DNA of 64,000 bases from Escherichia coli 042 (GTDB taxonomy: Bacteria > Pseudomonadota > Gammaproteobacteria > Enterobacterales > Enterobacteriaceae): NCBI RefSeq assembly GCF_000027125.1, contig NC_017626.1; one strand, 5' to 3'. Positions 4,691 through 62,560 of this stretch are shown here, in pieces. A program made the translations under genes and the position numbers. The number at the start of each line of letters is the position of its first letter. The first letter of the stretch is position 1. The notes beneath the pieces are model-generated. The model had not been told where the DNA came from, did not search any database, and was given only the letters and a program-made list of their open reading frames with translations.

Positions 4691-6330
4691 TCACTCACTC
4701 TCCTGCAAGTTTGCAGAATATCATCCGCAGCCTGGTAATACTTCGTCTCAACGCCAGTTAATCCCAATAGCGTGGAGAATAAATTATCTTGTGAATAGTG
4801 TTGCGTTTGCGCCTGTTTTTGCAGGCAGTTCTGGTCAACCTGATACCGTTTTTGATAATCCTCCGACAGCCACAGCAGCATCGGCACCTGTTTTTGGCTA
4901 TCCGGGGCGATGGCATAAGGCAGACCGTGCAGATAGATGCCATTTTCACCTAACGACTCACCGTGGTCAGAAAGATAAACCAGGCTGGTGGTGAATTTAT
5001 CCTGATGTTCTTTCAGCAGATTAATCGCTTTATCAACAATATAGTCGACGTAAACCAGCGTGTTGTCGTAAGTGTTCACCAGTTGCTCTTTGGTACAGGT
5101 CTGGATCTCGTTAGTGTCGCAGGTTGGGGTAAATTTCCTGAACTGCGGCGGATAGCGGTTGTAATAGGTCGGACCGTGGCTGCCGATGGTGTGTAAGACA
5201 ATCACGCCATCACCCTGCAGGTTATTGATGTACTCTTCCAGCCCGTGGAACAGCACTTCGTCATAGCATTCGCCGTTGATGCACTGACCAGGCAGATTCA
5301 GCGCGGTGACGTTCTGGTGAGGCACGCGGTCGCAGGCACCTTTACAGCCGCCATCGTTGTCATTCCACAGCACGTTGATGCCCGCTCGCTGAATGATATC
5401 CAGCACGCCTTCCTGGTGCTGTGCCAGCTCTTCTTTGTAGTGCTCACGCGGCATATCCGAGAACATGCACGGTACTGAAACTGCCGTTGCCGTGCCGCAA
5501 GATGCGGTATTAGGGAAATAGACCACGTTATCTTTTGCCAGCCGCGGGTTAGTTTCACGCGGATAGCCATTGAGGGAGAAGTTCTCCGCCCGCGAGGTTT
5601 CGCCGACAATCAGGATGGTCAAATTTTTACGTTTCTCTTTCTGCATTAATGGGTTGCGGTGCGCGTCTTCACCAATTCGCACCAGCGGCAGATTTGCCAG
5701 TCGCTGATGGGAGTACCATGACCAGCTGGCAACAATGCTGTTAGAGGGGCTTAAGGATTTCACCAGCTCTTTGTTGTTGCGGAACAATGAGGCGTAGTCT
5801 TTATAAAACAGTGCGGCGACCAGCAAAATCAGCAGTACAGACACCAGAATATTGGCTCCACGGAAAAGAACACTGCGCAGGCGCGAGGTGGCAGGTTTGA
5901 TTTTAATCCAGCAGGCAATCAGCGCAGCAAGCACGCCGCTGAATCCCAGCGTTAATAACATTTGCGGCGTCATCAACGCATAACTTTCTGCCGGAGTGGT
6001 ATCAATAATATTGGCAATCATCGAGCGGTCGATGACGATGCCGTAAGTCATTATGAAATATTGTGCAGCCGCGCCGACCAGAATAAACAGGCAGGCCAGC
6101 GGTCGATTAAGCCATAAGAAAGAGCTTAGTGTCAGGACAATATTAATCACGCTGAAGGCGACGACTGGCATCGACAAGAAAACCAGTACGTTATGCAGCG
6201 AGTCCAGCGGCAGCGCCTGCAACACCTGTTTAAAAAAGGCAATATTCAGGCAGATAGAGATATAAAAAGCGGCCAACAATAGCCAGGCGAGTAAATTCAA
6301 AGAGGGTCTTTTTAGTAGGCGCTTCAACAT
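4687..6330 (-). CDS. eptA: Lipid A phosphoethanolamine transferase EptA/PmrC
   Basis: ORF 4687-6375; internal Met ([14 protein letters not shown]) gives 547 aa. Multi-TM N-terminus plus sulfatase-like domain; 4-nt overlap with the basR start. Confidence 0.92.
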
Positions 6331-6378
6331 CACGGTGTTTCCATCGAACAAAGTGCGCATATGCTCGCAAAGCAAAAT

Positions 6379-6412
6379 TAAGCCAACCTTAAGTTCTTAA
6401 GGTTGGCTTTTA
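6379..6412 (-). terminator. Rho-independent terminator downstream of adiC
   Basis: Perfect stem agccaaccttaag/cttaaggttggct with T-run, between the adiC stop and the eptA start. Confidence 0.55.
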
Positions 6413-6433
6413 TGTTTGCTGGATTAAGGGGAA

Positions 6434-7771
6434 TTAATCTTTGCTTATTGGTGCATCTAAGGGATACGGGTTTTTATGCAGCCGGTTGTAATTCAGCGCA
6501 TACATGGCGGTGATGACCATCAGGGTGACAAATGACCACATAACCTCTTTCGCCCCGGACCCCACCACGGCCCAGATGCAGTAGAGGAAGGCAATGGTAG
6601 TAACTGCCAGATATACCGGGCGTGCTTTACCAAAGTGGCCGTGGCCGAGCAGCAGTAACGCCGCACAGGTGTAAAGATATGGCACCAGTGTAAAGATGAC
6701 CGAGACGGAAGAAACCAGACCGAACTCTTTGGTCGCGTTTGGTGAAATGCTGCTGAGCTGGAAGATGGTCATCAAAATACCGACGATAATCAGCCCCGCC
6801 ACTGGCGTACCCGCTTTATTAACACGGGCAAAAATCGGTGGGAACAGTCCGTCATCGGCAGCGGCTTTCGCCGTTTGACCCGCCAGCAACGTCCAGCCGC
6901 CCAGTGAACCTAAGCAACCCGCAGCTGCGCAGAAGGAAACAATGGCCCCGGCGGTGTCACCCAACGCCATCCGTGCGGCATCACCGAATGGCGAGGCAGA
7001 AACGCGCAGTGCGGCATTAGGGATCATCCCCATAATCGCGGTGGTGGAGAGTACATAGCAAACGGCGGCAATCAATACCCCACCAATGGTGGCGATAGGG
7101 ACGTTGCGTTTCGGGTTTTTCACCACACCTGCGGCAACGGAGGCACTTTCCACACCGATGAACGACCACAGCGTAACGTTAAGGGTACTTTGAATTGCAC
7201 CGAAGGTGCCCAGGCCGCTGACGTTCCATGCCGCCATATAGGTTTCACCACGGAACCAGAACCAGCCAAATACGGCAATCCCGACGATGGGGATCAGCGC
7301 CAGCACGGTGGCAACGGCCTGCACGCGGGTGATCATTTTCGGACCGACAATATTCAGCAGGACGAAGATCCACAGCACCACGACGCAGGTGATGGTTAAT
7401 ACCAATGGATCTTTCAGAATCGGGAAGAAGTAACTTAAATAACCTACGCCAATGACCACCATGGCGATATTGCCGATCCAGCAGGCCAGCCAGTAGAGGA
7501 CGTTGGTTTGATAACCGAGAAACGGCCCAAAGCAGCGACGGGCGTAAGCGTAAGAACCACCAGGACTTGGGTCGAGGAACGACATTTTGGCGTATACCAT
7601 CGAGAGCCCCAGCGCACCGATAATCGTCACCAACCATCCATAAATGGCAATCCCGCCAGTGGAGGCCAGGTTTGCAGGTAACAGAAAAACACCTGACCCC
7701 ATAATATTCCCCGACACCATCAGGGTGACGGGGATTAAGCCCACTTTGTGAGCATCAGCATCCGAAGACAT
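6434..7771 (-). CDS. adiC: Arginine:agmatine antiporter AdiC (APC family)
   Basis: 445 aa; [36 protein letters not shown]; 12-TM profile; synteny with adiY and adiA. Confidence 0.95.
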
Positions 7772-7907
7772 AATTAAACTCCTGCGAAGGCGAGCTTCGT
7801 GACAATAAATTACGTCATATCATACGCCTGCATTCGATAGTTGAATTATTATCGACCGGGTTATCGCTGATGCCGTTATTAATATAGCTCTTCGTTAAGG
7901 TTAAAAA

Positions 7908-8669
7908 TCAGGCGACAGTGCGTTCTCTGTGCTGACTAACATAATGCAGAGGCGTCATACCGTAGAAGTCTTTAAAGACAGAAATAAAGTACGACGTACT
8001 GTTGTAGCCGCAGGATTGTGATACCTGAGAGATATTTTTACCGTCCATCATTAATTCATTGACGGCATAACGCATGCGGCAGGTGGTGATTATTTGGCTA
8101 TAACTGGTGTTTTCGCTTTTCAGCTTTTTCTTTAACAGACTCGGGCTAAGACATAAACAACCGGCTACCATACTAAGATTCCAGTCTTTGTGGATATCGC
8201 TTTCAATAATTTGATAAACGCTGTCACTTACACAATTACGTAACATATACATCATTAATGAAAGGAATTTTTTACTGTCGAGAAAACGGGATAGCACAGT
8301 GAATAATAATGCACGTGTTCGTTCCTTTTCTGACTCAGTTTCAGCGGGCATCATGCTATGTTGCGCGGCAACGCGAAAGACGTCTGGCGTCAGGCATGGC
8401 AGGGTGAGGATGGGCGTAGCGCTACGTTGCCATACTGGTATTTGCGAGAGATCTTTATTCAGAAACCGGAGGTAATCTTTGATGATGTCGTGACTAATAT
8501 GAGCAACCAAAGTGTTATTAAGAGAGGAGACGTCGATAATATTATTTTCACAATTTAATAACGCCATATGGTTAGCTTTAAGGCTAATAGGTTCTTTCCC
8601 ATTCACCCTTATCCAGACATCTTTTTCAGTCAATAAAACAATACAAGGTTGGTCGCTGCAAATCCTCAT
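7908..8669 (-). CDS. adiY: AraC-family regulator AdiY
   Basis: 253 aa; C-terminal AraC-type HTH; lies between adiC and adiA. Confidence 0.9.
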   Translation of the reverse strand: MRICSDQPCIVLLTEKDVWIRVNGKEPISLKANHMALLNCENNIIDVSSLNNTLVAHISHDIIKDYLRFLNKDLSQIPVWQRSATPILTLPCLTPDVFRVAAQHSMMPAETESEKERTRALLFTVLSRFLDSKKFLSLMMYMLRNCVSDSVYQIIESDIHKDWNLSMVAGCLCLSPSLLKKKLKSENTSYSQIITTCRMRYAVNELMMDGKNISQVSQSCGYNSTSYFISVFKDFYGMTPLHYVSQHRERTVA

Positions 8670-9004
8670 ACATGTACTCCTGAGTGCGAATAAAAGACCA
8701 GTTCTCGCTAAAGCGAAGCGATACCGGGAAATGGTTATATAATTGTATGATGAATATAAACATGCATAAAAATAACGAGTTTTACTAATATTACAAATTT
8801 TTATAGTAATTTCTCATGTACATATTTTTTTACAGGCTAAAAAAAGGATAAATAACAGGCAAAAAAAAGCGCGGGGTGGGACCGCGCAAAAAGCATGACA
8901 TTTTTTGTTTGCAGCAATTTTTATGAAAACGTTGCCATACTTAAAAGGCCTCAAGCCAGGCGGCGTAATGTTATTTAACAATTACGCCTTCAGCGGAATA
9001 GTGG

Positions 9005-39992: not shown

Positions 39993-42900
39993 TCAGAAGG
40001 TCACATTCAGCGTGGCCTGACTGTTATAACCTTCAGCGCTGCTGCCGCTGACGCTGTGGGCATAACCGGCCTGAACGCCCAGGGTGATATTTTCCCGGAC
40101 ACGGGCTTCCAGTCCGGCCTGCAGATCCAGTGAAGTGCCATTCTGTGAGGGAGAGAACGTCATCCCGCTGCCTGCGGTGGAGGTCCCCACACGCATATCA
40201 CCCCGGGAGCTGAAGGTGCGGATAACGGAAGGCTGTACCCACCAGTTCACCGGCAGTTCACGCACACTGTGTTTTGCACTGTCACGCAGGGGGGCACGGG
40301 ATGAGGTGCCTTCACCAAAGGTCATATCGTTGTGGCTGCCCAGACGGAAACCGGCACGCACATGTTGTGCACTGCCATGCCCGAACTTCACATAACCGGC
40401 GTTGTCCTTACCGTCATCCAGCGAAAGCCCCTGCCAGGTGTACTGCAGCCGTGGCTCCAGCATCAGGTTGTCAGTAATACTGAAGGGCAGACCGGTTTCC
40501 AGTGAGCCCAGCCAGCCCCAGCCCCGTGCGCGGAAGTCGTTATTGCCCGATGACGCTTTCATACTGTGGCGGGTTCCCTGTGCCACAATGTCAGCCCACA
40601 GGCCGGAGGAGGTGTGTGTCAGGTTCATATATCCGCCCAGGCTGCCGGCATCATCCCGGACCGTGCCGGCGCGGGAGCCGTCATCATCCTTAACATCAAC
40701 GGAAGAATGGCCTGCAGCACCATACACTCCTGTCGTCAGTGACATACCGGCGACCTCTGTTCTGAGCAGGTCACCCTCCAGACGGACGAAGCCATAGCTG
40801 CCGCTGCTTTCCGGCGTGGCCCCACGGGCAATACCGCCGTTGTTATCGTGACCGAGATGGCCGCCCTGAATGCTGAGACGGACGCTGTTATTTTCACCGT
40901 TTACACCGGTCTGATGGCTGCGTGAGCCTGCCAGAATCCGGTCATAGTCCATTGCCTGTGTCAGCATGGAGGCGTACAGGGGGACTTCAGCACGATAACG
41001 TTCTTCACTGCGCAGATACCAGCTCTCATCACTGTCCCGGTTGAGGGTGTAGTTAAAGGCCCCGGCCTGCAGCATATTCCCCTGGACAAAAGCCCCTTCC
41101 TCCGTGGTGGCACCGTTAATGGCCTCAACCACCTGAATACCCTTACCGGTGGTCGCCAGCCCCGTACCACTGTTGCCGGCGTTCACCAGATTCAGGATGG
41201 TTTTTCCGGTTGCCCTGCCACCGTCAATGACCAGTCTGTCAGCATTGTTCTGCGCCATATCCGGGCGTACACGCAGGCTGATGGTGCCATTCTGCCCGTT
41301 CAGGTTTTTCACCTGCAGGGTTGCCGGTACGAACTTCCCTGTGCGGGTGGAGGTGAAATGAATCTGTCCGGCATGGCTGAGGTCATCCACCACCGACTGC
41401 ACCGTGGCGTTATCAGGGATATTCCAGGTGGCACCGGATGTCAGGGTGACATTCGTGGGGTCAATGGCACCGTTCAGCACTGTGCTGCCGGTCAGCTTCA
41501 GGGCCGTGCCGCGCTGAGCGATGACATCCGTGGTGACGGTACTGTCGTTCAGCGTCAGCGTGCCTTCATTCAGGTTGACGGTTTTCTGGGTGAGTGTGGT
41601 GTTGCTGACAGTGAGTGTGCCACTTCCTGATTTTTCCACCCTGCCGTTACCGGTAAGAGCGCCTCCCTGCAGGAGTGCATCACCTTCACGGATGGTCAGG
41701 GTATCGTTATTCACCGTTTTCCCGGAAAGGGTAAGCGTGGCACCGTTATTCAGCGTGGTGGTGCCCGCCAGCGAGCCCCCTCTGGCAGTGAACAGTCCGC
41801 CATTTACCGTGGTATCCGTGGCCGTATCACCGGCGTTCAGCGTGAATGAACTGCCTTTTTCCAGCATCAGGGCATCCGCCTGACCGCCCCCGATACGGAA
41901 TGCCGTTCCGTCGCTCCGGGTACCACTGACAGCGGCCCCGGAATCGGCCAGCAGTACACCGCCATTCCCCATGGATACGGTGGTGGCGGCACCACCGTTG
42001 CGGACATCCAGCGTTCCGCCATCATCCACACGGGTATTAGTGGCTGTGTGTCCGCTCAGCACATCCAGACGTCCGCCATTTTCCAGTACGACATTATCAG
42101 CCTTACCCGCCAGAACGGAGAATGCTCCCAGGCGGTTTGTGCCGGTGACGGTTGCAGCTGTGCTGGTAACCAGTGCACCTCCCGTGTTCTGGGTGACATC
42201 AGACGCTTTACCGCCGGCATTCACCTGCAGCTTTCCTTTCTGGTTGATGGTGGTATGCGCGGTAGTTCCTCCTTCCTTAATCACCTGCCAGCCCCCCTCG
42301 TTAATTACCGTGTTCAGCGCAAGTCCGTATTTGTGCACATACTGGTTTCCTCCCTCCAGCCGGGTGTTATGTGCCTCGCCGTGTACCGTCTGGTCACCGC
42401 CGGCGTAAATGAGGGTGTCCCGTGCCATCCCCGAAGACCAGATAACCTGCCGGCCATTTTTGTTGATGGTGGTGGATTCAGCCGTCCCTCCGACCATCTG
42501 ACCGCTGGACACATTTTCAGACTCCGGACCACCTTCTGCACCGGTGTTGACGATGGTTCCGGTTGCCTGCCCGCCATGTTTAATGGTCTGGTAGCCAGAC
42601 TGGTTAATCACCGTTCCGGATGCACTGCCGCCTGCATGTATCCATTGTTCACCACCGTTAAGGACAGTACCGTAAGCCTGCCCGCGCAGATTCTGTCCTC
42701 CACCGGCACTGATAACCGTATCCGTGGCACTGCCACCTGCCATGACATCCTGCAGACCGTTTGCGGTGACCGTGGTGTTTCTGGCAGTGCCACCCCGGGC
42801 TATCTGCTGACCGCCGGTGTTGTCATCAGAGTCCGGCCCCAGCTCAAGCCCGGTACTGACAGTCACGCCATCAGCTGTTCCGGATACAAACTGGTTGTCA

Positions 42901-43112
42901 TGGTTTACCAGTGTTCCGCCATTCACTGTTTCACCCGGGTGCACAACGATGTCAGCAGCCAGCACCGGGAGTGACGTGACTGCGGCAAGAGACAGTGCAA
43001 CCGCCACACCGCCACGTTTACCCCGTGCGCGGGCCAGTTCGGAGGCAACCACGAAAGCGCCCGTAATGTGATTCCATACCAGCCTGTAGCAGGTATTCAG
43101 ATGTCGTTTCAT
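39993..43112 (-). CDS. flu: Antigen 43 (Flu) self-associating autotransporter adhesin
   Basis: ORF 39993-43118; from the third Met (MKRHLNTCYRLVWNH...) gives 1039 aa; extended signal peptide, beta-helical passenger repeats, C-terminal beta-barrel ending ...ATLNVTF. Confidence 0.93.
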   Translation of the reverse strand: MKRHLNTCYRLVWNHITGAFVVASELARARGKRGGVAVALSLAAVTSLPVLAADIVVHPGETVNGGTLVNHDNQFVSGTADGVTVSTGLELGPDSDDNTGGQQIARGGTARNTTVTANGLQDVMAGGSATDTVISAGGGQNLRGQAYGTVLNGGEQWIHAGGSASGTVINQSGYQTIKHGGQATGTIVNTGAEGGPESENVSSGQMVGGTAESTTINKNGRQVIWSSGMARDTLIYAGGDQTVHGEAHNTRLEGGNQYVHKYGLALNTVINEGGWQVIKEGGTTAHTTINQKGKLQVNAGGKASDVTQNTGGALVTSTAATVTGTNRLGAFSVLAGKADNVVLENGGRLDVLSGHTATNTRVDDGGTLDVRNGGAATTVSMGNGGVLLADSGAAVSGTRSDGTAFRIGGGQADALMLEKGSSFTLNAGDTATDTTVNGGLFTARGGSLAGTTTLNNGATLTLSGKTVNNDTLTIREGDALLQGGALTGNGRVEKSGSGTLTVSNTTLTQKTVNLNEGTLTLNDSTVTTDVIAQRGTALKLTGSTVLNGAIDPTNVTLTSGATWNIPDNATVQSVVDDLSHAGQIHFTSTRTGKFVPATLQVKNLNGQNGTISLRVRPDMAQNNADRLVIDGGRATGKTILNLVNAGNSGTGLATTGKGIQVVEAINGATTEEGAFVQGNMLQAGAFNYTLNRDSDESWYLRSEERYRAEVPLYASMLTQAMDYDRILAGSRSHQTGVNGENNSVRLSIQGGHLGHDNNGGIARGATPESSGSYGFVRLEGDLLRTEVAGMSLTTGVYGAAGHSSVDVKDDDGSRAGTVRDDAGSLGGYMNLTHTSSGLWADIVAQGTRHSMKASSGNNDFRARGWGWLGSLETGLPFSITDNLMLEPRLQYTWQGLSLDDGKDNAGYVKFGHGSAQHVRAGFRLGSHNDMTFGEGTSSRAPLRDSAKHSVRELPVNWWVQPSVIRTFSSRGDMRVGTSTAGSGMTFSPSQNGTSLDLQAGLEARVRENITLGVQAGYAHSVSGSSAEGYNSQATLNVTF

Positions 43113-43304
43113 CAGCATTTCCTTAATCAGAGTGAGGGTGAATAAAAAAGCCGGTATCCACAGATGTGGATACCGGCAGGTAAAGGGTTACAGTGCCGGA
43201 GGTCCGGCTGACGGAAGTTTCTGACGTGTGGCTCTGTTGTTCCCTGAATCTCATGTCTGTGTGTATCTGCGCACGTTGCTAACAGGAGTTATTATTAGCA
43301 TGAC

Positions 43305-43340
43305 GATCGATATAAACGATCGATAAAATAGGTATCGATC
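43305..43340. promoter_or_regulatory. Ag43 phase-variation switch: three clustered GATC sites (Dam/OxyR)
   Basis: GATC at 43305, 43318 and 43337 within gacGATCgatataaacGATCgataaaataggtatcGATCg, ~190-230 bp upstream of the flu start codon. Confidence 0.7.
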
Positions 43341-43445
43341 GTTTTATTCTATTATCAGGCTATTGCACGGACAAGAGAGACAGTAACGAAAACAGCGCTT
43401 TTGTGAGCAGACTCAGAGGCAGGGAGGACATCATCCACAACAGGT

Positions 43446-44318
43446 TCAGAAGAAGATCCAGTTCCATACCGCGCGGGCAACAGAGACCACGGTGTCACGA
43501 ACAGCGCGCAGGGCCGTACGGACAACAGAGGCAACACAGACGCTCTCCGCTGTGTCAAATATCCGGTCCACCGCACCGGTAAACTGTTCACGGGCCTGAG
43601 AGCGGACAGACTCCGTGCGCAGCTCGTCCTGCAGTCGGGTCATCAGGGGGCTGGCGGCATGGTCGGGAAGCGCTGTCATGAGCGCACTGACCAGCGTATC
43701 CAGTTCCCAGCCGGTGCGGGCCGATACGGCAACAACCGGATGTACGGGCCGGAACAGACGGAATACCGCCTCCGTTTTCTCACGAATGTTCTGTTCCTGT
43801 GCGGGAGAAGGCTGAATACCTGCCATATCCCATTCATGGCAGGGTTCCGTTTTGTCAGCCTGCGTCACCACAAACAGCACCTGCTGATGTCCGCACTGCA
43901 GGATGTGTCGCCAGAAATACTCATCCACAGACAGGGCCCGGTCATCGGCTTTAATCAGCCACAGCACCAGGTCCAGTTCAGGCAGAATGTCACGGTACAG
44001 GGCTTCATACTCTGCATCCCTGTCCCGGCTCTCGCCCACCCCGGGCAGGTCAGTGATAACCATGCTGTGACCGTGACCACTCAGACGGAAGCGCTGCACT
44101 TCCCGGGTGCCGGCGTGAACATCACTGACCGGTGTGACCTCCCCCTGAAACAGTGCATTACAGAGTGAAGATTTACCGGCCCCGCTTTTACCCATAATGC
44201 CAATCACGGGTTCGTGACTGGTGAGTTTGCGCAGATGTTCCAGGATGTGACGGGAAAGTGAGTAAGGCAGGGAGGAGAGCGGTTTTTCAATTGCCTCAAT
44301 GGCATCAGACGGATTCAT
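43446..44318 (-). CDS. YeeP/YkfA/YfjP-family GTPase
   Basis: P-loop GIMGKSGAGKSS and DxxG motif DLPG; upstream of flu as yeeP is in CP4-44. ORF 43446-44357, internal Met start assumed. Confidence 0.8.
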   Translation of the reverse strand: MNPSDAIEAIEKPLSSLPYSLSRHILEHLRKLTSHEPVIGIMGKSGAGKSSLCNALFQGEVTPVSDVHAGTREVQRFRLSGHGHSMVITDLPGVGESRDRDAEYEALYRDILPELDLVLWLIKADDRALSVDEYFWRHILQCGHQQVLFVVTQADKTEPCHEWDMAGIQPSPAQEQNIREKTEAVFRLFRPVHPVVAVSARTGWELDTLVSALMTALPDHAASPLMTRLQDELRTESVRSQAREQFTGAVDRIFDTAESVCVASVVRTALRAVRDTVVSVARAVWNWIFF

Positions 44319-44427: not shown

Positions 44428-45447
44428 TTACTTCCTTCGCTTGTGTTCAAGATATTTCTCTGTAATCAGCATTTCAAAAAACTCTCCTGTTCTCAGACCG
44501 TAAACAGTTCTGAGCTCATCAAGCATTTCTTTCACATTGCTTCTTATATGTATATTAATGGCCTTTTTACCATCACTCCGATATTTGTCCTTTTGTTTTT
44601 TCTGATGCCAGGCATGATTTATTCGTGTTCTGAACAGTTCAATGGTATCAGGCGCTTCTTTCCATAAAGCAAAGGCGACAAGAGAGGCAAGATAATATTC
44701 TTTCGTTGAAGATGGTATGAACCACCGGGTCACTGGGTTATGTACTGGATGTTTTTCATCCTGTTTTTGTTTCAGTCTTGTCCAGAACCACTGACACATT
44801 TCATCATCGTCAGGAAGGAACCACTTAAACTTTTGACAAGCGCTTTTCTTTTTAAGCCACGCCTGCCTGAGTTCCTCGAGGTATATGCTTTTTGCATTTT
44901 TATTAATTAAAGAATGGCAGGAGTCAAAATATGAAATGATTACTTTTATTCGTTCGTTATGGGATGATGGATTATCCGGAAGGTTACTTTTTTTGTAAGT
45001 ATTTAACGTTTCATCGGTAACTGTTCGTATTTTCCTGACTTCAATTCCGTTTTTTATTCCTGATGAATTATGGTTTATTTTCGGGAATTTTGTATGGTCT
45101 TCCTTCGACAGATAAATAGTAGTCCAGGTAAAGAAAGTCGCAAGTTCGTCAGTTTTCAACCAGAGAAAACTCTCTTCAGGCAGTATTGCCTGCCCTGCAA
45201 TAATTTCAAGTTCATTAATTTCTTTGCTGAGAGCTTCTTCTGCAGTCGAACCAAAAACACCAAAAGAATTGTTTGAAGCTTTATAATACTTTTCTTTTAA
45301 AAACGAATTAACATTTCTGATACAGTTTTGTGGGTTGTCAGGCGCAAACTGAGGGAATTCATTGGGGTATTTGTGATTCAGATATTCGGCATAAAACCGA
45401 CATTTACGGGGATCTTTGCATTTGATAAGCATCTGTTCGTTATTCAT
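44428..45447 (-). CDS. Orphan hypothetical protein (339 aa) in AT-rich segment
   Basis: Lys/Asn-rich ORF with low-GC codon usage unlike its neighbours; no motif recognised by eye. Confidence 0.55.
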   Translation of the reverse strand: MNNEQMLIKCKDPRKCRFYAEYLNHKYPNEFPQFAPDNPQNCIRNVNSFLKEKYYKASNNSFGVFGSTAEEALSKEINELEIIAGQAILPEESFLWLKTDELATFFTWTTIYLSKEDHTKFPKINHNSSGIKNGIEVRKIRTVTDETLNTYKKSNLPDNPSSHNERIKVIISYFDSCHSLINKNAKSIYLEELRQAWLKKKSACQKFKWFLPDDDEMCQWFWTRLKQKQDEKHPVHNPVTRWFIPSSTKEYYLASLVAFALWKEAPDTIELFRTRINHAWHQKKQKDKYRSDGKKAINIHIRSNVKEMLDELRTVYGLRTGEFFEMLITEKYLEHKRRK

Positions 45448-52745: not shown

Positions 52746-52798
52746 GATCGATGTATCTGTTATATTGAGATTTTTCAGATCTTCGTCCTATAATGATC
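52746..52798 (+). promoter_or_regulatory. T6SS promoter candidate: TATAAT -10 flanked by three GATC sites in an AT-rich Fur-box-like context
   Basis: GATC at 52746, 52778 and 52795; TATAAT at 52789-52794 abuts the third GATC; ataatgatcaaaatta resembles the Fur-box core; ~80 nt upstream of tssB. Confidence 0.6.
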
Positions 52799-54953: not shown

Positions 54954-56291
54954 ATGAAGATTTATCGCCCATTATGGGAAGACGGGGCTTTTCTGATGCC
55001 CCAGCAGTTTCAGCAGCAGGCTGCCTGGGATGTTCATCTGGCAGACAGCGTTGCCAGAATGGGGCTGGCGCATCCATGGGGCGTGGTGGCTGCAGAGTTT
55101 GATGACTCTCTGTTACCGCTTTCACGGTTGAATGCCACCCGTCTGATTGTTCGTTTCCCGGACGGAACGCTTATTGATACGGAACGCGCGGATAATCTGC
55201 CTCCGGTCTGTGATTTATCGACGGTTTCTGATCGTTCCCTGGTGGATATTGTGCTGGCACTACCGTTACTGAATGCTAACGGTGGCAACCTTGATAATGG
55301 CAGTGAGAGCGAGCGTCCGCGTCGCTGGAAATCAGAAAGGGTGAATGTGCAGGAGCTGGCCGGGCATGAGCAAAGCGAAGTGGCGGTATTGCGGCATAAC
55401 CTGACTCTGCGCATGGCTCATCAGGAAAATGCTGCCTGGCTGACCTGTCCCGTTACCCGTCTTGTTCGTGATGCACAGGGACAGTGGTGCAGGGACCCGC
55501 GTTTTATTCCCCCTCTGCTGACGCTGTCTGCCAGTCCTTCGCTGATGACTGAACTTGCGGAGTTGCTTCATCACCTGCAGGCGCGTCGCCAGCGACTGAT
55601 GTCCATGCGTCGGGAGAACAATGCCCGTCTTGCGGATTTTGCTGTGGCGGACGTGTCGTTGTTCTGGTTGCTGAATGCCCTGAACAGTGCGGAGCCTGTT
55701 CTGAAAGAGTTGCTTGACATGCCTTACCGCCACCCGGAACTGTTGTACAGGGAGCTTGCCCGGCTGGCAGGCTCCCTGCTCACATTCTCGCTTGAGCATA
55801 ATGTGGATGCGGTTCCGGCATACCATCATGAAACACCTGAAAATGTTTTCCCACCATTGCTTTCTTTGCTGAACCGGCTGCTGGAGGCAAGCCTGCCTTC
55901 CCGTGTGGTTTTCATTGAACTGAAACAAAAGGGTGTGATGTGGGAGGGGGCATTACATGATGCGCGTCTGCGCGAAGGGGCTGATTTCTGGCTTTCAGTG
56001 CGCTCTTCCATGCCCGGGCATGAACTGCAGACGAAGTTTCCGCAGCTATGCAAAGCCGGGAGCCCCGATGATGTGTCTGAGGTGGTGAATGTGGCGCTGA
56101 GCGGGGTCATTATCCGTCCGGTTACGCATGTACCGGCGGCCATTCCGCTCCGGCTGGAAAACCAGTATTTCGCGCTGGATTTAAGTACGGATGCGGCCCG
56201 GGCGATGCTGGACGCGGGGCGTTGTACTTTCTACACCCCGGCATCGCTGGGAGATGTGAAACTGGAACTTTTTGCGGTGCTGCGGACATGA
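54954..56291 (+). CDS. tssK: T6SS baseplate protein TssK
   Basis: 445 aa; MKIYRPLWEDGAFLMPQQFQQQ, canonical TssK N-terminus. Confidence 0.9.
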   Translation: MKIYRPLWEDGAFLMPQQFQQQAAWDVHLADSVARMGLAHPWGVVAAEFDDSLLPLSRLNATRLIVRFPDGTLIDTERADNLPPVCDLSTVSDRSLVDIVLALPLLNANGGNLDNGSESERPRRWKSERVNVQELAGHEQSEVAVLRHNLTLRMAHQENAAWLTCPVTRLVRDAQGQWCRDPRFIPPLLTLSASPSLMTELAELLHHLQARRQRLMSMRRENNARLADFAVADVSLFWLLNALNSAEPVLKELLDMPYRHPELLYRELARLAGSLLTFSLEHNVDAVPAYHHETPENVFPPLLSLLNRLLEASLPSRVVFIELKQKGVMWEGALHDARLREGADFWLSVRSSMPGHELQTKFPQLCKAGSPDDVSEVVNVALSGVIIRPVTHVPAAIPLRLENQYFALDLSTDAARAMLDAGRCTFYTPASLGDVKLELFAVLRT

Positions 56292-56941
56292 ATAAACCTG
56301 TTATCTCCCGGGCTGAACAGATTTTTTATCCCGGCTGGCTGATGGTCAGCCAGCTGCGCAGCGGGCAACCGGTTGAGGATGGTAAGGCCCTGTATCGCCG
56401 TGCCTGTCAGCTGGTGAAACAGGCGCGTGAAGAGCTGGCCGAAGCAGGATTCAGTCAGAAAAGCAGTGACATCATGTTGTATGCCTTCTGCGCCCTGCTG
56501 GACGAGAGTGTACTGAACCGCGAAAAAACAGACGATGGCTGGCGCACCTGGCAGCAGGACCCGCTGCAGGCTCATTTTTTTGGTACGCTCAATGCCGGTG
56601 AAGAGCTCTGGGAGCGTATTCGTGAACAACTGAAATTACCAGCGCCGGATGTGGCGGTACTGACATGCCTCTGCCGTACGCTTCAGCTCGGTTTTACCGG
56701 TCAGTACCGGTCGCAGGATGATGAGCGTCGCGAAGATGTAATACGCGCACTGACAGCGCGTGTTCCTGCATTTACTTTCGCACAGGATGCGCCGGTGGTG
56801 GTGCGTGCACCGGGTTACCGTGCTGGCAGAACGATGTACTGGTTGTCATGGGGGGCGGGTATTGTGACGCTGGCTGGTCTCTGGTGTGTGCTTTCTTCTG
56901 TGCTTGCAGACCAGGTGGCACGGCTTACCGGGCAGGGATAA
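56288..56941 (+). CDS. tssL: T6SS membrane-complex protein TssL (DotU-like)
   Basis: ORF 56222-56941; start taken at the ATGA overlap with the tssK stop (MNKPVISRAEQIFYPGWL...); cytoplasmic DotU domain plus single C-terminal TM helix. Confidence 0.88.
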   Translation: MNKPVISRAEQIFYPGWLMVSQLRSGQPVEDGKALYRRACQLVKQAREELAEAGFSQKSSDIMLYAFCALLDESVLNREKTDDGWRTWQQDPLQAHFFGTLNAGEELWERIREQLKLPAPDVAVLTCLCRTLQLGFTGQYRSQDDERREDVIRALTARVPAFTFAQDAPVVVRAPGYRAGRTMYWLSWGAGIVTLAGLWCVLSSVLADQVARLTGQG

Positions 56942-56943
56942 CC

Positions 56944-58674
56944 ATGCACGTACGTTCCCGTCTCTGGCTGACAATACTGAGTCTGTTCCTGACACTGTGG
57001 CTGATTTCGGGATTCCTGCCGCTGTCTGCAGTAAACCAGATAATACTGACCCTGGTTTCAGTTGTGGCGGCGGGGCTTGTGCTGTGGTACCAGTGGCGTT
57101 GTCTGTCTTCCCGTCGTGATATCCCGGAGAAGGCCGGCGATGACGGTCTGCCGCCTGAGTATTTTCAGGGACATGTGCTGCTTGTTGCCGGAAACTCAGA
57201 TGCGTGGTTCGAACCCGGTCAGGCATACCGGGAAACAGCATCGGGATGGTATCTTCGTGTGGATACGCCGGAGCAGATGAGAATACTGGCAGAACGGTTG
57301 TCGTACAGCCGTCCGGCCCTGTGTGGCCAGGTCGTGGTCATGCTGGGACTTTTACCGGAGCAGCATACCTCAGATGAAGCTTTCCTGTCGTGGTTGCGGA
57401 ACTGGCAGCGTGCAGTCATGCAGTGCCGGCAGTGGCTGAATACCACGCCACCGGTGCTGGTTACATTGATGGTTTCAGAGCCGTCACCACAAAACACATC
57501 CTTAAATAAGCACTCTACACACTGGTTTACACTGACACCGGACCTGCCGGGAATGCATATACGCCTGACGGAAGCCGGAGCAATTCCGGCAGAGGAATGG
57601 CTGCAGGCGTGTGATGCAGCGTCCAGGCTCCGGTGCGTCAGTGAACTGTTATGGCTGAATGCCATGTTGTCCTGGTACAACCGGGTTACTGATGCCCTGA
57701 CAGCTATTTGCCGGCAGGAGCACTTTTATTTCCGGCCGGTTGCCGTTGGATTCTGTCTGACGTCGGTTGCGGCCCGCCCCGGTAATCTCTGGCAACAACA
57801 ACTGACGTCCCTCACTGCATTGCCACCGCCTGCCGGCGTGTCATCACAGGTATTGCCGTTGCCGGATATTCTGCTGTCCGGTATTCCCCGTCATCGTGGA
57901 CTCAGTCACTGGCACAGACTTTGTCGCCAGACGGGGGCGATTGTCGGTGTTTTTCTTCTGCTGGCTATGCTGGCGTCTTTTATGAATAACCAGCGGCTGG
58001 TTCGCAGCGTGGGGGAACACCTGACGGCCTGGCACCGGATGCGCGGATATTCATCTGAATCGAAAACAACAGCACTGCAACGTCTTCAGGCTGACAGCCA
58101 GTTACTGAACGACTGGCAGCAACGTGGTGTGCCACAGCGTTACGGACTGGGATTGTATCAGGGAATGTGGCTGATACCGCCGGTTGAGCGTGCGACTGGT
58201 GAGTGGGTTGCACCACGGCCTCCCCGTCCGGTGATACAGAAAGTTACTCAGACGCCGAAAACGGTTCGCCTTAACAGCCTGGCACTGTTTGATGCCGGTA
58301 AATGGACGCTGAAGCCGGGCGCCACAAAATGGCTGGTGAATGCCCTGGTGGATATTAAGGCAAAAGCAGGCTGGCTGATTGTGGTCAGTGGTCACACGGA
58401 TAATACCGGTGACCCGCTGCGCAACCAGGCCTTGTCCCTGAAGCGTGCAGAGGCCGTTCGCGACTGGATGCGGGATACCGGCGATATTCCCCAAAGCTGT
58501 TTTGCCGTACAGGGATACGGTGAAAGCCGCCCTGTGGCCCCGAATGACACGGCGGAAGGCCGTGCGCGTAACCGCCGTGTTGAAATCAGTCTGGTACCGC
58601 AGGCCGATGCCTGTCGTCTGCCGGACGTTTCCCCTGCGCCGGAAGAGGGCGCATCAGAAAACATAACGGAGTAA
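56944..58674 (+). CDS. tagL: TagL-like T6SS accessory protein: polytopic membrane domain plus C-terminal OmpA/MotB-type peptidoglycan-binding domain
   Basis: ORF 56848-58674; Met at 56944 immediately after the tssL stop gives 576 aa; N-terminal TM helices; C-terminal VSGHTDNTGDPLRNQALSLKRAEAVRDWM...NRRVEI OmpA-like motif. Confidence 0.8.
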   Translation: MHVRSRLWLTILSLFLTLWLISGFLPLSAVNQIILTLVSVVAAGLVLWYQWRCLSSRRDIPEKAGDDGLPPEYFQGHVLLVAGNSDAWFEPGQAYRETASGWYLRVDTPEQMRILAERLSYSRPALCGQVVVMLGLLPEQHTSDEAFLSWLRNWQRAVMQCRQWLNTTPPVLVTLMVSEPSPQNTSLNKHSTHWFTLTPDLPGMHIRLTEAGAIPAEEWLQACDAASRLRCVSELLWLNAMLSWYNRVTDALTAICRQEHFYFRPVAVGFCLTSVAARPGNLWQQQLTSLTALPPPAGVSSQVLPLPDILLSGIPRHRGLSHWHRLCRQTGAIVGVFLLLAMLASFMNNQRLVRSVGEHLTAWHRMRGYSSESKTTALQRLQADSQLLNDWQQRGVPQRYGLGLYQGMWLIPPVERATGEWVAPRPPRPVIQKVTQTPKTVRLNSLALFDAGKWTLKPGATKWLVNALVDIKAKAGWLIVVSGHTDNTGDPLRNQALSLKRAEAVRDWMRDTGDIPQSCFAVQGYGESRPVAPNDTAEGRARNRRVEISLVPQADACRLPDVSPAPEEGASENITE

Positions 58675-58679
58675 TTTTT

Positions 58680-59171
58680 ATGGCAATTCCAGTTTATCTG
58701 TGGCTGAAAGATGATGGCGGTGCAGATATCAAAGGGTCCGTGGATGTTCAGGACCGTGAGGGCAGCATTGAGGTGGTGGCTCAGGAGCACTGCCTCTACA
58801 TCCCGACGGATAACAATACCGGTAAGCTGACCGGTACCCGTATTCACACGCCGTTTCTGTTTACCAAGGAAATTGATTCTTCCAGCCCGTACCTTTACAA
58901 GGCCGTGACCACCGGGCAGACCCTGAAGTCTGCTGAGTTTAAGTGGTACAAAATCAATGATGCCGGTCAGGAGGTGGAGTATTTCAATACGAAGCTTGAG
59001 AACGTGAAGGTGGTGAAGGTTAACCCGGTCATGCACGACATCAAGAATCCCGCTTACGAGAAGCATAACCACCTTGAGCAGGTGGAACTGCGCTACGAGA
59101 AAATCACCTGGACTTACAAGGACGGCAACATCATTCATTCCGACGCATGGAGTGAGCGTACCACCGCGTAA
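58680..59171 (+). CDS. hcp: T6SS inner tube protein Hcp (TssD)
   Basis: 163 aa; MAIPVYLWLKDDGGADIKGSVDV, classic Hcp. Confidence 0.93.
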   Translation: MAIPVYLWLKDDGGADIKGSVDVQDREGSIEVVAQEHCLYIPTDNNTGKLTGTRIHTPFLFTKEIDSSSPYLYKAVTTGQTLKSAEFKWYKINDAGQEVEYFNTKLENVKVVKVNPVMHDIKNPAYEKHNHLEQVELRYEKITWTYKDGNIIHSDAWSERTTA

Positions 59172-59330
59172 TTCTGCCGGACGGACAGGGCATCCTGTCC
59201 GTCATTTTTATTTTTTCTTCAGCATCTGTTGGCGGGTGCTGAAGAAAGAATTCTCAATCCTGAACACAGACCTGATGCGCCTGGGTTACGGCGAAGGGCG
59301 GTAGCGTGCCTGACGGTCTCCTGACAGTGA

Positions 59331-61997
59331 GTGAATAACATGGAAAATTCGGCAGCCCTGTTACGTCGTCTTAATCATTACTGTGCCCGTGCACTGGAAG
59401 GCGCAGCCTCCCTTTGCCAGACCCGGGCCCATGCGGAAATCACCCCGGAGCACTGGTTACTGAAACTGCTGGAGCAGGGGGAAGGAGACCTTACCGTGCT
59501 GGGCAGGCGTTATGACTGGGATATGGACGCGATATGGCAGTCGCTGCTCGGCTGGCTGGATAACCAGCCCCGTAGCGTACGCAGTCGCCCGCAGCTTGCG
59601 CAGTCCCTGAATGCTCTGCTGAAACAGGCCTGGATGGTGGCCTCATTACAGGGAGAAGAACATATCCGCAGCGTGCATCTGCTGGGTGCCCTGACGGAAA
59701 ATCCGCACCTGGTTCGCTGTGACGGGCTGTGGCCTCTGCTGACACTGAGTCAGAGCCAGTTGCAGCGTCTGTCCCCGCTGCTGGATGCGCAGTCTGATGA
59801 GTGTCCGGAGACGTTACAGGATGCAGAGCCTGTGCTGCCTCAGGGAGACAGTGTGACCTTTATCGGGCGCCCTGTCGGTGCGGATACGGCAGGTATACCG
59901 TCAGGTGACCTGCCGCCGGTGTTACAGGGTGCGCTGGATAAATTCACCCGGGACATCACGGCCAGCGCGAGAGAGGGGAAAATTGACCCGGTATCGGGAC
60001 GCGATACGGAAATCCGTCAGATGGTGGATATTCTCTCCCGCCGTCGCAAGAATAACCCGATTCTGGTGGGGGACCCCGGTGTGGGGAAAACGGCTCTGGT
60101 GGAAGGGCTCGCCCTGCGTATTGTGGAAGGTAACGTACCAGAATCTCTCAGACCCGTCACCCTGCGCACCCTTGACCTCGGCCTGCTGCAGGCCGGTGCC
60201 GGCGTGAAAGGTGAATTTGAACAGCGTCTGAAAAACGTGATTGATGCCGTGCAGCTGTCACCGGCTCCTGTACTGCTGTTTATAGATGAAGCCCATACCC
60301 TTATCGGTGCCGGTAATCAGGCCGGTGGCGCGGATGCGGCCAACCTGCTGAAGCCTGCGCTGGCGCGAGGCGAACTGCGCACCATTGCTGCCACCACCTG
60401 GTCTGAGTACAAACAATACCTGGAACGTGACGCGGCTCTGGAGCGGCGTTTTCAGATGGTCAAAGTGGACGAGCCGGATGATGAGACGGCCTGTCTGATG
60501 CTGCGCTCCCTGAAATCCCGTTATGCGGAACATCATAACGTGCATATCACCGATGAGGCAGTACGTGCTGCCGTCACACTCTCGCGCCGTTATCTGACAG
60601 AACGTCAGTTACCGGACAAGGCCGTTGACCTGCTTGATACTGCTGCTGCCCGTGTGCGGATGAGCCTCGACACGGTGCCGGAACAGCTGACCCGAATCCG
60701 TTCACAGCTCGCTTCCCTCGGTATGGAAAAACAGGCACTGCTGGAAGATATTGCCGTTGGTCATCAGAATCACGGCGAACGCCTGTCTGCCATTGAGCAG
60801 GAAGAGAACGTGCTGATGACAGCACGTGATGACCTGGAGCAGCAGTACGCCCGTGAGTGCGAACTCACCGGTGAGTTACTTGAAAGCCGCAGCGATATTT
60901 CCCGCCAGAGTGAGACACATCACCTGCAGCAGGCACTGCACGACATTCAGCAGAATCAGCCCCTGCTCAGTGTGGATGTTGACGTACGCACCGTTGCCGG
61001 TGTGGTCGCGGACTGGACCGGAGTGCCGTTATCCTCACTGATGAAGGATGAACAGACGGAACTGCTGCATCTGGAAAAGGATATCGGCAGACGGGTGGTC
61101 GGACAGGACGTGGCACTGGAATCCATTGCACAGCGTCTGCGTGCGGCGAAAACGGGTCTGACATCCGGTAACGGCCCCCAGGAGGTGTTCCTGCTGGTCG
61201 GCCCCAGTGGTGTGGGAAAAACCGAAACGGCACTGGCGCTGGCAGATGTGATGTACGGCGGCGAAAAATCACTGATTACCATCAATCTGTCGGAATATCA
61301 GGAGCCCCATACGGTTTCCCAGCTTAAGGGTTCACCGCCCGGGTACGTGGGATACGGTCAGGGGGGTATTCTGACGGAAGCTGTACGTAAGCGCCCTTAC
61401 AGCGTGGTGCTGCTGGATGAAGTGGAAAAGGCCCACCGGGATGTGCTGAATCTGTTCTACCAGGTGTTTGACCGGGGCTTTATGCGCGACGGTGAGGGGC
61501 GTGAAATTGACTTCCGTAATACGGTCATTCTGATGACCTCCAATCTGGGCAGTGACCTTCTGATGCAGCAACTGAGCGAAAAGCCGGAGACAACGGAATC
61601 GGAGCTGCATGAGCTTATCCGTCCACTGCTGCGCGACCACTTCCAGCCAGCACTGCTTGCCCGTTTCCAGACCGTGATTTACCGTCCGCTGACACCGTCT
61701 GCTATGCGCACCATTGTGGAGATGAAGCTTGCACAGGTCTGCGAACGCCTGCACTGCCATTATGGGCTGAGCACATCGGTTGATGAACGTGTGTACGATG
61801 CCCTGACATCCGCCTGCCTGCTGCCGGATACGGGCGCCCGGAATGTGGAGAGTCTGCTGAACCAGCAACTGCTGCCGGTACTGAGCCGGCAGTTGCTGAG
61901 CCATATGGCCGCGAAGCAGAAACCGCAGGCGCTGGCTCTGGCATGGAGTGACGAAGACGGTATGGTGATTGAGCTGCGGCAGGAATGCGCGTTATGA
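59331..61997 (+). CDS. clpV: T6SS AAA+ ATPase ClpV (TssH)
   Basis: 888 aa; two AAA+ modules with Walker A GDPGVGKT and GPSGVGKT; ClpB-like N-domain. Confidence 0.95.
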
Positions 61998-62560
61998 CCG
62001 GCTATGGCAGAAATCAGGACGCTGGCGCAGGTAAAAATCAAAGGGAAGAAGGCTCATTGCGGTTACTGACGCCGGGAGAGATTGCGCTGGCGAGGCTGGT
62101 ATTCAGGTTGACAATCCCTTATGAAAAGGTCTGGATCCACCATGACAGTTTTCTGCCTTTTGGTCTTCAGAATAAGCAAACTGCCATGCCCCCCGATGGT
62201 AAGATTTATTTCCGTGAGCACTATCGGGATGATTATTCACTCAGCGTTCCCTTTTATCAGCATATGTTTATTCATGAAATGGCGCATGTCTGGCAGCGTG
62301 AAAAGGGAATGAATGTCATCGGTCGGGGGATGTTCAGTTGGGCGGTGAATTACCGTTATGTTCTGGACGGGCGTCTGTTAAGCGAATATCCCATGGAGCA
62401 GCAGGCACAAATTATTGCTGATCATTTTACTTTGCAGGCTGAAGGATACGGGACATGGTGTGATATGAGAAGGGACGGTGATATCACACTGGACGGAAAT
62501 ATGTCTGAGTATGTTATTCGCAGCCTGTATACCAGCACGTTGCGGGGGTTCCCATGGTAA
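61994..62560 (+). CDS. HExxH-motif protein (putative Zn-metallopeptidase-like), T6SS-associated, function unknown
   Basis: ORF 61985-62560; ATGA overlap with the clpV stop suggests translational coupling; motif FIHEMAHVWQ; no signal peptide. Confidence 0.55.
   Translation: MTGYGRNQDAGAGKNQREEGSLRLLTPGEIALARLVFRLTIPYEKVWIHHDSFLPFGLQNKQTAMPPDGKIYFREHYRDDYSLSVPFYQHMFIHEMAHVWQREKGMNVIGRGMFSWAVNYRYVLDGRLLSEYPMEQQAQIIADHFTLQAEGYGTWCDMRRDGDITLDGNMSEYVIRSLYTSTLRGFPW

Follow-up and report, generated by a model that had tools for sequence, protein, structure and literature searches.

An island-borne agn43 (flu) gene of Escherichia coli preceded by a probably intact Dam/OxyR phase-variation switch and leader RNA

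We analysed the 333 bp at positions 43113-43445 of a 64,000-nucleotide stretch of Escherichia coli DNA (in the following, the window). That is, we studied the whole intergenic gap from the flu ATG (43112, minus strand) to the GTPase gene upstream, whose stop codon is at 43446. This region is very probably the canonical epigenetic phase-variation switch of agn43 (flu) together with its leader RNA, intact in an island copy of the gene. A sequence-only reading of the window had already proposed a match to the Dam/OxyR-controlled agn43 switch, and this was borne out, i.e., all K-12 elements accessible to sequence analysis were found, each in the K-12 register. The evidence for the putative switch sites is their position-for-position homology to K-12 and their conservation across alleles, and no sequence evidence against the canonical-switch explanation was seen. 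The feature is already known and is annotated as agn43 in identical deposited genomes.

The Dam/OxyR mechanism of agn43 is established in K-12 (PMC3764049, PMC13337833, PMC4872104), and the region studied here would work as follows. A sigma-70 promoter (TTGTCC/TAGAAT) would start the transcript at 43340 (minus strand), the G of the first GATC, and a single OxyR tetramer site from about -16 to +42 would contain the GATCs at +1, +20 and +33. After replication, OxyR and Dam would compete for the hemimethylated or unmethylated site. Once bound, OxyR would block the promoter and shield the GATCs from Dam, which gives a heritable OFF state; if Dam came first, the GATCs would be methylated, OxyR excluded and the promoter would fire (ON). 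The transcript would then cross an IsrC/IS102 leader of about 228 nt with a strong terminator just ahead of the ribosome-binding site, such that Ag43 would be made from read-through only. OxyR binding, methylation sensitivity, switching and aggregation are expected for this allele by homology to K-12. The genes dam and oxyR lie outside the 64-kb window. Our literature search yielded no methylome or expression data for this allele; agn43 is cited only in passing by Beaulaurier 2015, Cooper 2014 and the O111 SMRT paper.

First, we considered the GATC sites and the promoter. Three GATCs had been placed within 36 bp at 43305-43340, which the sequence positions confirm: GATC-I at 43337-43340 (+1 to +4), GATC-II at 43318-43321 (+20 to +23) and GATC-III at 43305-43308 (+33 to +36), each a Dam target. 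Their overall span of 36 bp makes them the tightest GATC triplet of the window; the starts are 19 and 13 bp apart, with spacers of 15 nt and 9 nt. The region aligns end to end with the yeeP-flu intergenic region of K-12 MG1655 at about 89% nucleotide identity. This alignment with the K-12 agn43 regulatory region, which the earlier reading had suggested as a check, yields identical -35 and -10 boxes and three GATCs in register. The offsets +1, +20 and +33 are the same in the window, in K-12 and in 10 further genome alleles that cover the whole identity range, and GATC-I is kept in 12/12 genome alleles. The 3' end of the GTPase gene contains a fourth GATC (43455-43458), which precedes GATC-I by 115 bp. 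It is shared by this allele group, while K-12-type alleles have GATT, and we therefore place it outside the conserved switch.

A promoter scan identified the -35 hexamer TTGTCC at 43369-43374 and, after a 17-bp spacer, the -10 hexamer TAGAAT at 43346-43351 (both minus strand). Both are the same as in K-12; the -35 hexamer is nearly invariant in 12 alleles and the -10 hexamer is invariant in 12 genome alleles. The -10 box ends 5 nt ahead of GATC-I, whose G (43340, minus strand) is the predicted transcription start (+1) by homology, i.e., the homologous G is the start of the K-12 RefSeq IsrC feature. The start was reportedly mapped to this G by Wallecha et al. 2002, and the OxyR(C199S) DNase I footprint of the same study is reported to cover -16..+42 in K-12; the minimal region reportedly comprises 101 nt. 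With these footprint limits, the equivalent of the K-12 footprint is located at 43299-43356 (minus strand).

The predicted 37-bp core of the OxyR tetramer site (43306-43342, minus strand) is the best match to ATAGnTnnnAnCTAT-n7-ATAGnTnnnAnCTAT, with 14/20 specified positions. This score is the best in the region and ties the maximum of the whole window, and K-12 shows the same score and register; the next-best OxyR-consensus windows score at most 12. The predicted single tetramer site overlaps all three GATCs. The sequence-only reading had put the GATCs in the flu leader, which is a simplification; the first GATC contains the predicted start, and the OxyR site spans the boundary of promoter and leader. 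Promoter-like and terminator-like matches on the plus strand at 43300-43344 were discarded as mirror images of the palindromic OxyR site, i.e., they are not separate features.

Compared to K-12, the reported footprint contains five substitutions (+5, +9, +38, +39, +41), and at its 5' end the leader forms a more stable RNA hairpin (-11.5 kcal/mol vs. -6.5 kcal/mol in K-12). Both observations would fit a switch that is present but skewed or locked in this allele, that is, the substitutions might alter OxyR affinity or Dam kinetics such that cells are mostly ON or mostly OFF instead of switching at about 1e-3 per generation. We regard this as improbable. The changes at +5 and +9 are at unspecified (N) positions of the OxyR consensus, where G at +5 is even the majority state (9/12 genome alleles), and those at +38, +39 and +41 are outside the 37-bp core but fall within the edge of the reported footprint, where they might affect OxyR affinity. 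The three GATCs and their spacing are unchanged. Furthermore, 4 metagenome loci contain exactly the core haplotype of the window, and a region at least 99% identical to this 333-bp allele occurs in 127 complete genomes, which argues for a common and apparently maintained allele.

Next, we studied the leader RNA. With cmscan, the leader was assigned to Rfam RF00124 (IS102/IsrC) at 43137-43342 (minus strand) with 255.5 bits (gathering score 46, E = 1.4e-49), and the match is full-length (model positions 1-206 of 206). The fold of the leader is more stable than that of shuffled sequences (z = -5.0). Up to the ATG, the leader has about 228 nt and is thus 6 nt longer than in K-12 (222 nt). A terminator scan found an intrinsic terminator at 43140-43177 (minus strand), composed of a perfect 12-bp stem, an ATCT loop and a T6 run. 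Its hairpin has an energy of -24.1 kcal/mol vs. -23.5 kcal/mol in K-12, where the stem contains one G-U pair, and the stem is invariant across 12 alleles. The Shine-Dalgarno sequence AAGGA follows at 43120-43124 (minus strand), 7 nt ahead of the ATG at 43112, and is also invariant in 12 alleles. In the K-12 RefSeq annotation, IsrC begins with the G of GATC-I and ends in the T-run of the terminator, shortly before the flu ribosome-binding site.

The full-length Rfam match, the strong terminator ahead of the ribosome-binding site and the K-12 annotation, which lists IsrC as an ncRNA gene, could alternatively be taken to mean that IsrC (IS102) is a small RNA acting in trans and the main product of the region, with flu as a minor read-through by-product. 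We know of no trans target of IsrC. IsrC and the flu 5' UTR are colinear and share the flu promoter, and the literature takes it as the prematurely terminated flu leader, with flu expression governed by IsrC antitermination (PMC5389530, citing Wallecha 2014). A main role in trans is thus highly improbable, and it would in addition be compatible with the switch, which would control IsrC too.

We then asked how the GATC triplet compares to random expectation and how well it is maintained in populations. A triplet within 36 bp is present in 221/300 (74%) Markov-1 simulated 64-kb sequences, while simulations of the 333-bp region alone show one in 1.3% of the runs. Since triplets are common at the 64-kb scale, we rejected the tight clustering as evidence for a switch. 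Among complete E. coli genomes, 1917/5426 (about a third) carry the 333-bp region, with up to 4 copies per genome. Metagenome contigs were probed with the hairpin of the leader terminator, which is free of GATC, in order to avoid ascertainment bias. This provided 120 metagenome loci; of these and one MAG contig from a separate scan (see below), 117 carry the regulatory region. All three GATCs are found at fixed spacing in 110/117 loci (94%), and exactly one GATC is lost through a single substitution in the remaining 7/117.

With regard to single columns, we compared the number of variant haplotypes among 68 distinct 100-nt haplotypes, which is 0.42 per GATC column and 7.28 per other column between -16 and +42. 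No clear conservation signal was seen for the OxyR-consensus columns outside the GATCs when compared with the N columns (7.0 vs. 9.0 variant haplotypes), which means that the classical OxyR consensus describes this site only weakly. The GATC cluster could also have arisen by chance in an intergenic region that is AT-rich and palindromic, and have no regulatory role, in line with the equally tight triplets in 74% of the simulated sequences. This alternative has a negligible probability and is in effect refuted by the conservation data, i.e., 110/117 independently sampled loci keep three sites while neighbouring columns vary freely, and the sites are position for position identical with the experimentally characterised ones of K-12. 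The seven loci with one lost GATC (L020, L024, L036, L041, L068, L109, L111) show GATA, AATC, TATC or GATG instead and are candidates for altered or locked switches. A scan of species-representative genomes with the terminator probe produced a single match, the 2.3-kb contig L020 of a 'Collinsella' MAG, which is probably mis-binned E. coli-like DNA; for this reason, the scan is uninformative on the spread beyond E. coli.

Downstream of the putative switch, the flu/agn43 coding sequence (39993-43112, minus strand) encodes the self-associating autotransporter Ag43 with 1039 aa, as identified by alignment to K-12 Flu and by Pfam domains. The full length stated in the sequence-only reading stands up to both comparisons. 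Across 1039 aa, the product aligns to K-12 Flu with 88% identity and zero gaps, and ESPR (PF13018), the AIDA-type passenger (PF16168, 5 stretches), the AC_1 autochaperone (PF18883) and the autotransporter beta-barrel (PF03797) are all within one uninterrupted ORF, as is characteristic of the T5aSS protein Ag43. In the identical strain HH35 (100%), the gene is annotated as agn43 (WP_000820380.1). The ORF listing gives 1041 aa instead, based on an extra in-frame ATG at 43118 (43116-43118) two codons ahead of the flu start. The respective sequence is ATGCTGATG here and AAGCTGATG in K-12, i.e., K-12 has AAG instead of ATG, and the extra ATG is only 1 nt past the AAGGA Shine-Dalgarno sequence. Given this proximity and the AAG in K-12, we consider the ATG at 43112 the real start and 1039 aa the correct length.

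Phase-variable autoaggregation, as put forward in the sequence-only reading, can reasonably be expected to be functional here. Fimbriae or capsule can mask aggregation in wild strains. All four Ag43 passenger classes aggregate (PMC6668479), and so do all three EAEC 042 agn43 alleles when expressed (PMC2808357). Among the metagenome ORFs that end inside their contig, 91/101 (about 90%) are full-length. With 110/117 loci carrying three GATCs, the intact state observed here is therefore the common state. The other flu/cah ORFs ending inside their contig (about 10%, from L021-L140) are truncated to 82-644 aa and keep the regulatory region, and the flu/cah copies of RM10809-3 and BEN2908 are also annotated as frameshifted. 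Pseudogenisation downstream of an intact switch is thus fairly common.

On the other side of the region, a YeeP-like GTPase gene (43446-44318, minus strand; Pfam MMR_HSR1) is located upstream of flu in the same orientation, and its stop codon bounds the regulatory region; HH35 and SK1144 annotate it as 'GTPase family protein'. It is preceded by a 339-aa ORF at 44428-45447 (minus strand) with 37% G+C, which is hypothetical in SK1144 and HH35 and for which no Pfam match was found.

We also investigated the genomic context, given that flu had been called island-borne. Positions 1-31652 of the window are core chromosome including cadC, cadB and cadA, while 31653-64000 show 99.985% identity to the island of HH35 (locus L013, 13652-46001), i.e., the island comprises at least 32 kb. 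The segment adjoins cadCBA here and glc/gspL/yghD in HH35. The island consequently sits at different core loci in different strains, which upholds the earlier statement, and the two insertion loci are most likely the pheU and pheV sites. In SK1144, the same flu module adjoins cadC and is accompanied by an integrase remnant. The island content includes a CP4-44-like yeeS/T/U/V module, IrmA, the flu unit and the sci1 T6SS. There are no tRNA genes within the 64-kb window, which places the attachment-site tRNA at the far end of the island. HH35, PO06021 and BR1220 share the 12-kb neighbourhood with 100% identity, and the O104:H4 outbreak genomes share it with 99.9% identity.

As a discovery, these results have little weight, since the switch is a textbook example and three conserved GATCs in island-borne alleles are already part of the EAEC 042 genome paper. 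They are of value for annotation: heterogeneous expression is to be expected, and studies of expression, biofilm or methylome of the host strain should account for ON and OFF subpopulations. In addition, the population counts give a modest quantitative measure of the degree to which the GATC sites are maintained.

Beside the switch itself, we observed that GATC is nearly absent from the flu coding sequence, which contains 1 GATC here and 0 in K-12 and SK1144, while about 9 are expected from synonymous-codon shuffles; 0/2000 such shuffles are as GATC-poor. The GATC-poor stretch covers coding sequence and leader (40128-43304 of the window; 5354-8719 in the K-12 locus L001). There are 0-2 GATC in each of nine flu alleles, whose nucleotide identity goes down to 71%, and among 91 full-length flu alleles from metagenomes there are 74 with none, 12 with one and 5 with two. 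This manifests in the codon usage of flu, where Asp is encoded by GAC before codons starting with C and mostly by GAT elsewhere, and Ile is never encoded by ATC after codons ending with G. In K-12, the GATC desert extends from GATC-III to 61 bp beyond the flu stop codon, after which yeeR is GATC-dense; the yeeR-like gene downstream of flu in the window has 18 GATC vs. 13.6 expected.

GATC-free regions of at least 1 kb are known as a general phenomenon of E. coli islands (PMC4659465), and our literature search found no report of a GATC desert specific to flu. The scarcity of GATC in the flu coding sequence (0-2 in about 3 kb in all alleles examined, via context-dependent synonymous codons, and in K-12 with limits that coincide with those of the transcription unit) might be a selected part of the function of the locus, which we put forward only tentatively and consider rather doubtful. 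If it were true, the desert could insulate the regulatory GATCs from Dam/SeqA traffic and thereby let OxyR win the race after replication. Alternatively, it could weaken MutH-directed mismatch repair and thus favour allelic diversification and mosaic recombination of the surface antigen.

The host island carries two predicted Dam-dependent switches, flu and the sci1 T6SS. For the latter, we found three GATCs over 53 bp at 52746-52798 in the promoter upstream of tssB (52851), 9 kb from the flu switch, with a TATAAT -10 box immediately ahead of the last GATC. Their contexts (ATCGAT, TCAGA, TGATCA) presumably correspond to the restriction sites of Brunet et al. 2011, and the arrangement matches the Fur/Dam switch published for the EAEC sci1 T6SS (PMC3145626). 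A GATC-free stretch is also observed here, namely 6.9 kb at 55234-62133 (tssK to tssH), which is the longest gap in the window; tssH has 0 GATC vs. 8.5 expected. The gene tssC, which is the second gene after the sci1 switch and upstream of this gap, shows no depletion (11 GATC vs. 10 expected). A general rule by which Dam-regulated promoters are followed by GATC deserts is thereby weakened.

Finally, we compared the flu switch with known systems. Switches of the pap type depend on Lrp and Dam, with two GATC boxes about 102 bp apart in Lrp sites and a PapI-like co-regulator. The flu region differs from this architecture, i.e., 19 and 13 bp separate the starts of its GATCs, and a further GATC is located 115 bp upstream in the GTPase gene; no papI-like ORF is listed for the flu intergenic region.

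In Salmonella gtr (P22) and opvAB, OxyR and Dam likewise compete at GATCs in OxyR half-sites and thereby establish heritable ON and OFF states (PMC2909390, PMC4856963). Both have four GATCs, arranged as two pairs, and alternative OxyR sites that overlap the promoter or are located upstream of it, where OxyR is both activator and repressor (PMC2909390). The flu switch, in contrast, would use a single site whose three GATCs follow the -10 box, with OxyR as repressor only. An arrangement of three or four half-sites as in gtr/opvAB is not what we find here, given three GATCs, one 37-bp site and scores of at most 12 for other OxyR windows. The sci1 switch of the same island shares with flu the competition of a repressor and Dam at a GATC overlapping the promoter; it differs in that the repressor is Fur and not OxyR, that only GATC-I is protected and that it is driven by iron and not purely stochastic (PMC3145626).

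The Cah/Ag43-Cah group (alleles of 948 aa) resembles the region in its -10 box, the three GATCs (15-nt and 9-nt spacers), the leader terminator and the ribosome-binding site. Differences are an unrelated middle part of the leader, a shorter passenger domain and a lower OxyR-consensus score (10/20 in the K-12 register vs. 14 here). In addition, the 7-bp centre between GATC-I and GATC-II (43322-43336 in the window) is inverted in Cah-type loci, i.e., it reads AAACAGG or AAATAGG vs. CCTATTT here. The inverted centre is found in L012 (23CRST036) as well as in most 948-aa Cah-type metagenome loci, with AAATAGG in one locus, while the 9-bp inverted arms CGATCGATA/TATCGATCG are unchanged. The Cah-type centre corresponds to the reverse complement of the Ag43-type centre, exactly in one locus and with one mismatch in most, which looks like a hairpin-loop inversion of the palindrome. 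It is this inversion that lowers the OxyR-consensus score.

Among the closest known systems is agn43/flu of K-12, with which the region shares promoter hexamers, GATC positions, OxyR register and score, leader family, terminator, ribosome-binding site and the product length of 1039 aa. A YeeP-like GTPase gene flanks both, which is intact here and a pseudogene in K-12. Further differences concern the location, i.e., the CP4-44 prophage in K-12 and a pheU/pheV-type island beside cadC here, and the terminator stem, which is perfect here and has the single G-U pair there. For EAEC 042, the genome paper describes a pheU island with a T6SS and, for both agn43 allele groups, three similarly spaced GATCs (PMC2808357). 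Compared to the agn43 copies on the pheU islands of EAEC 042 and O104:H4, we see no difference of substance; the window contains the same element in another strain background.
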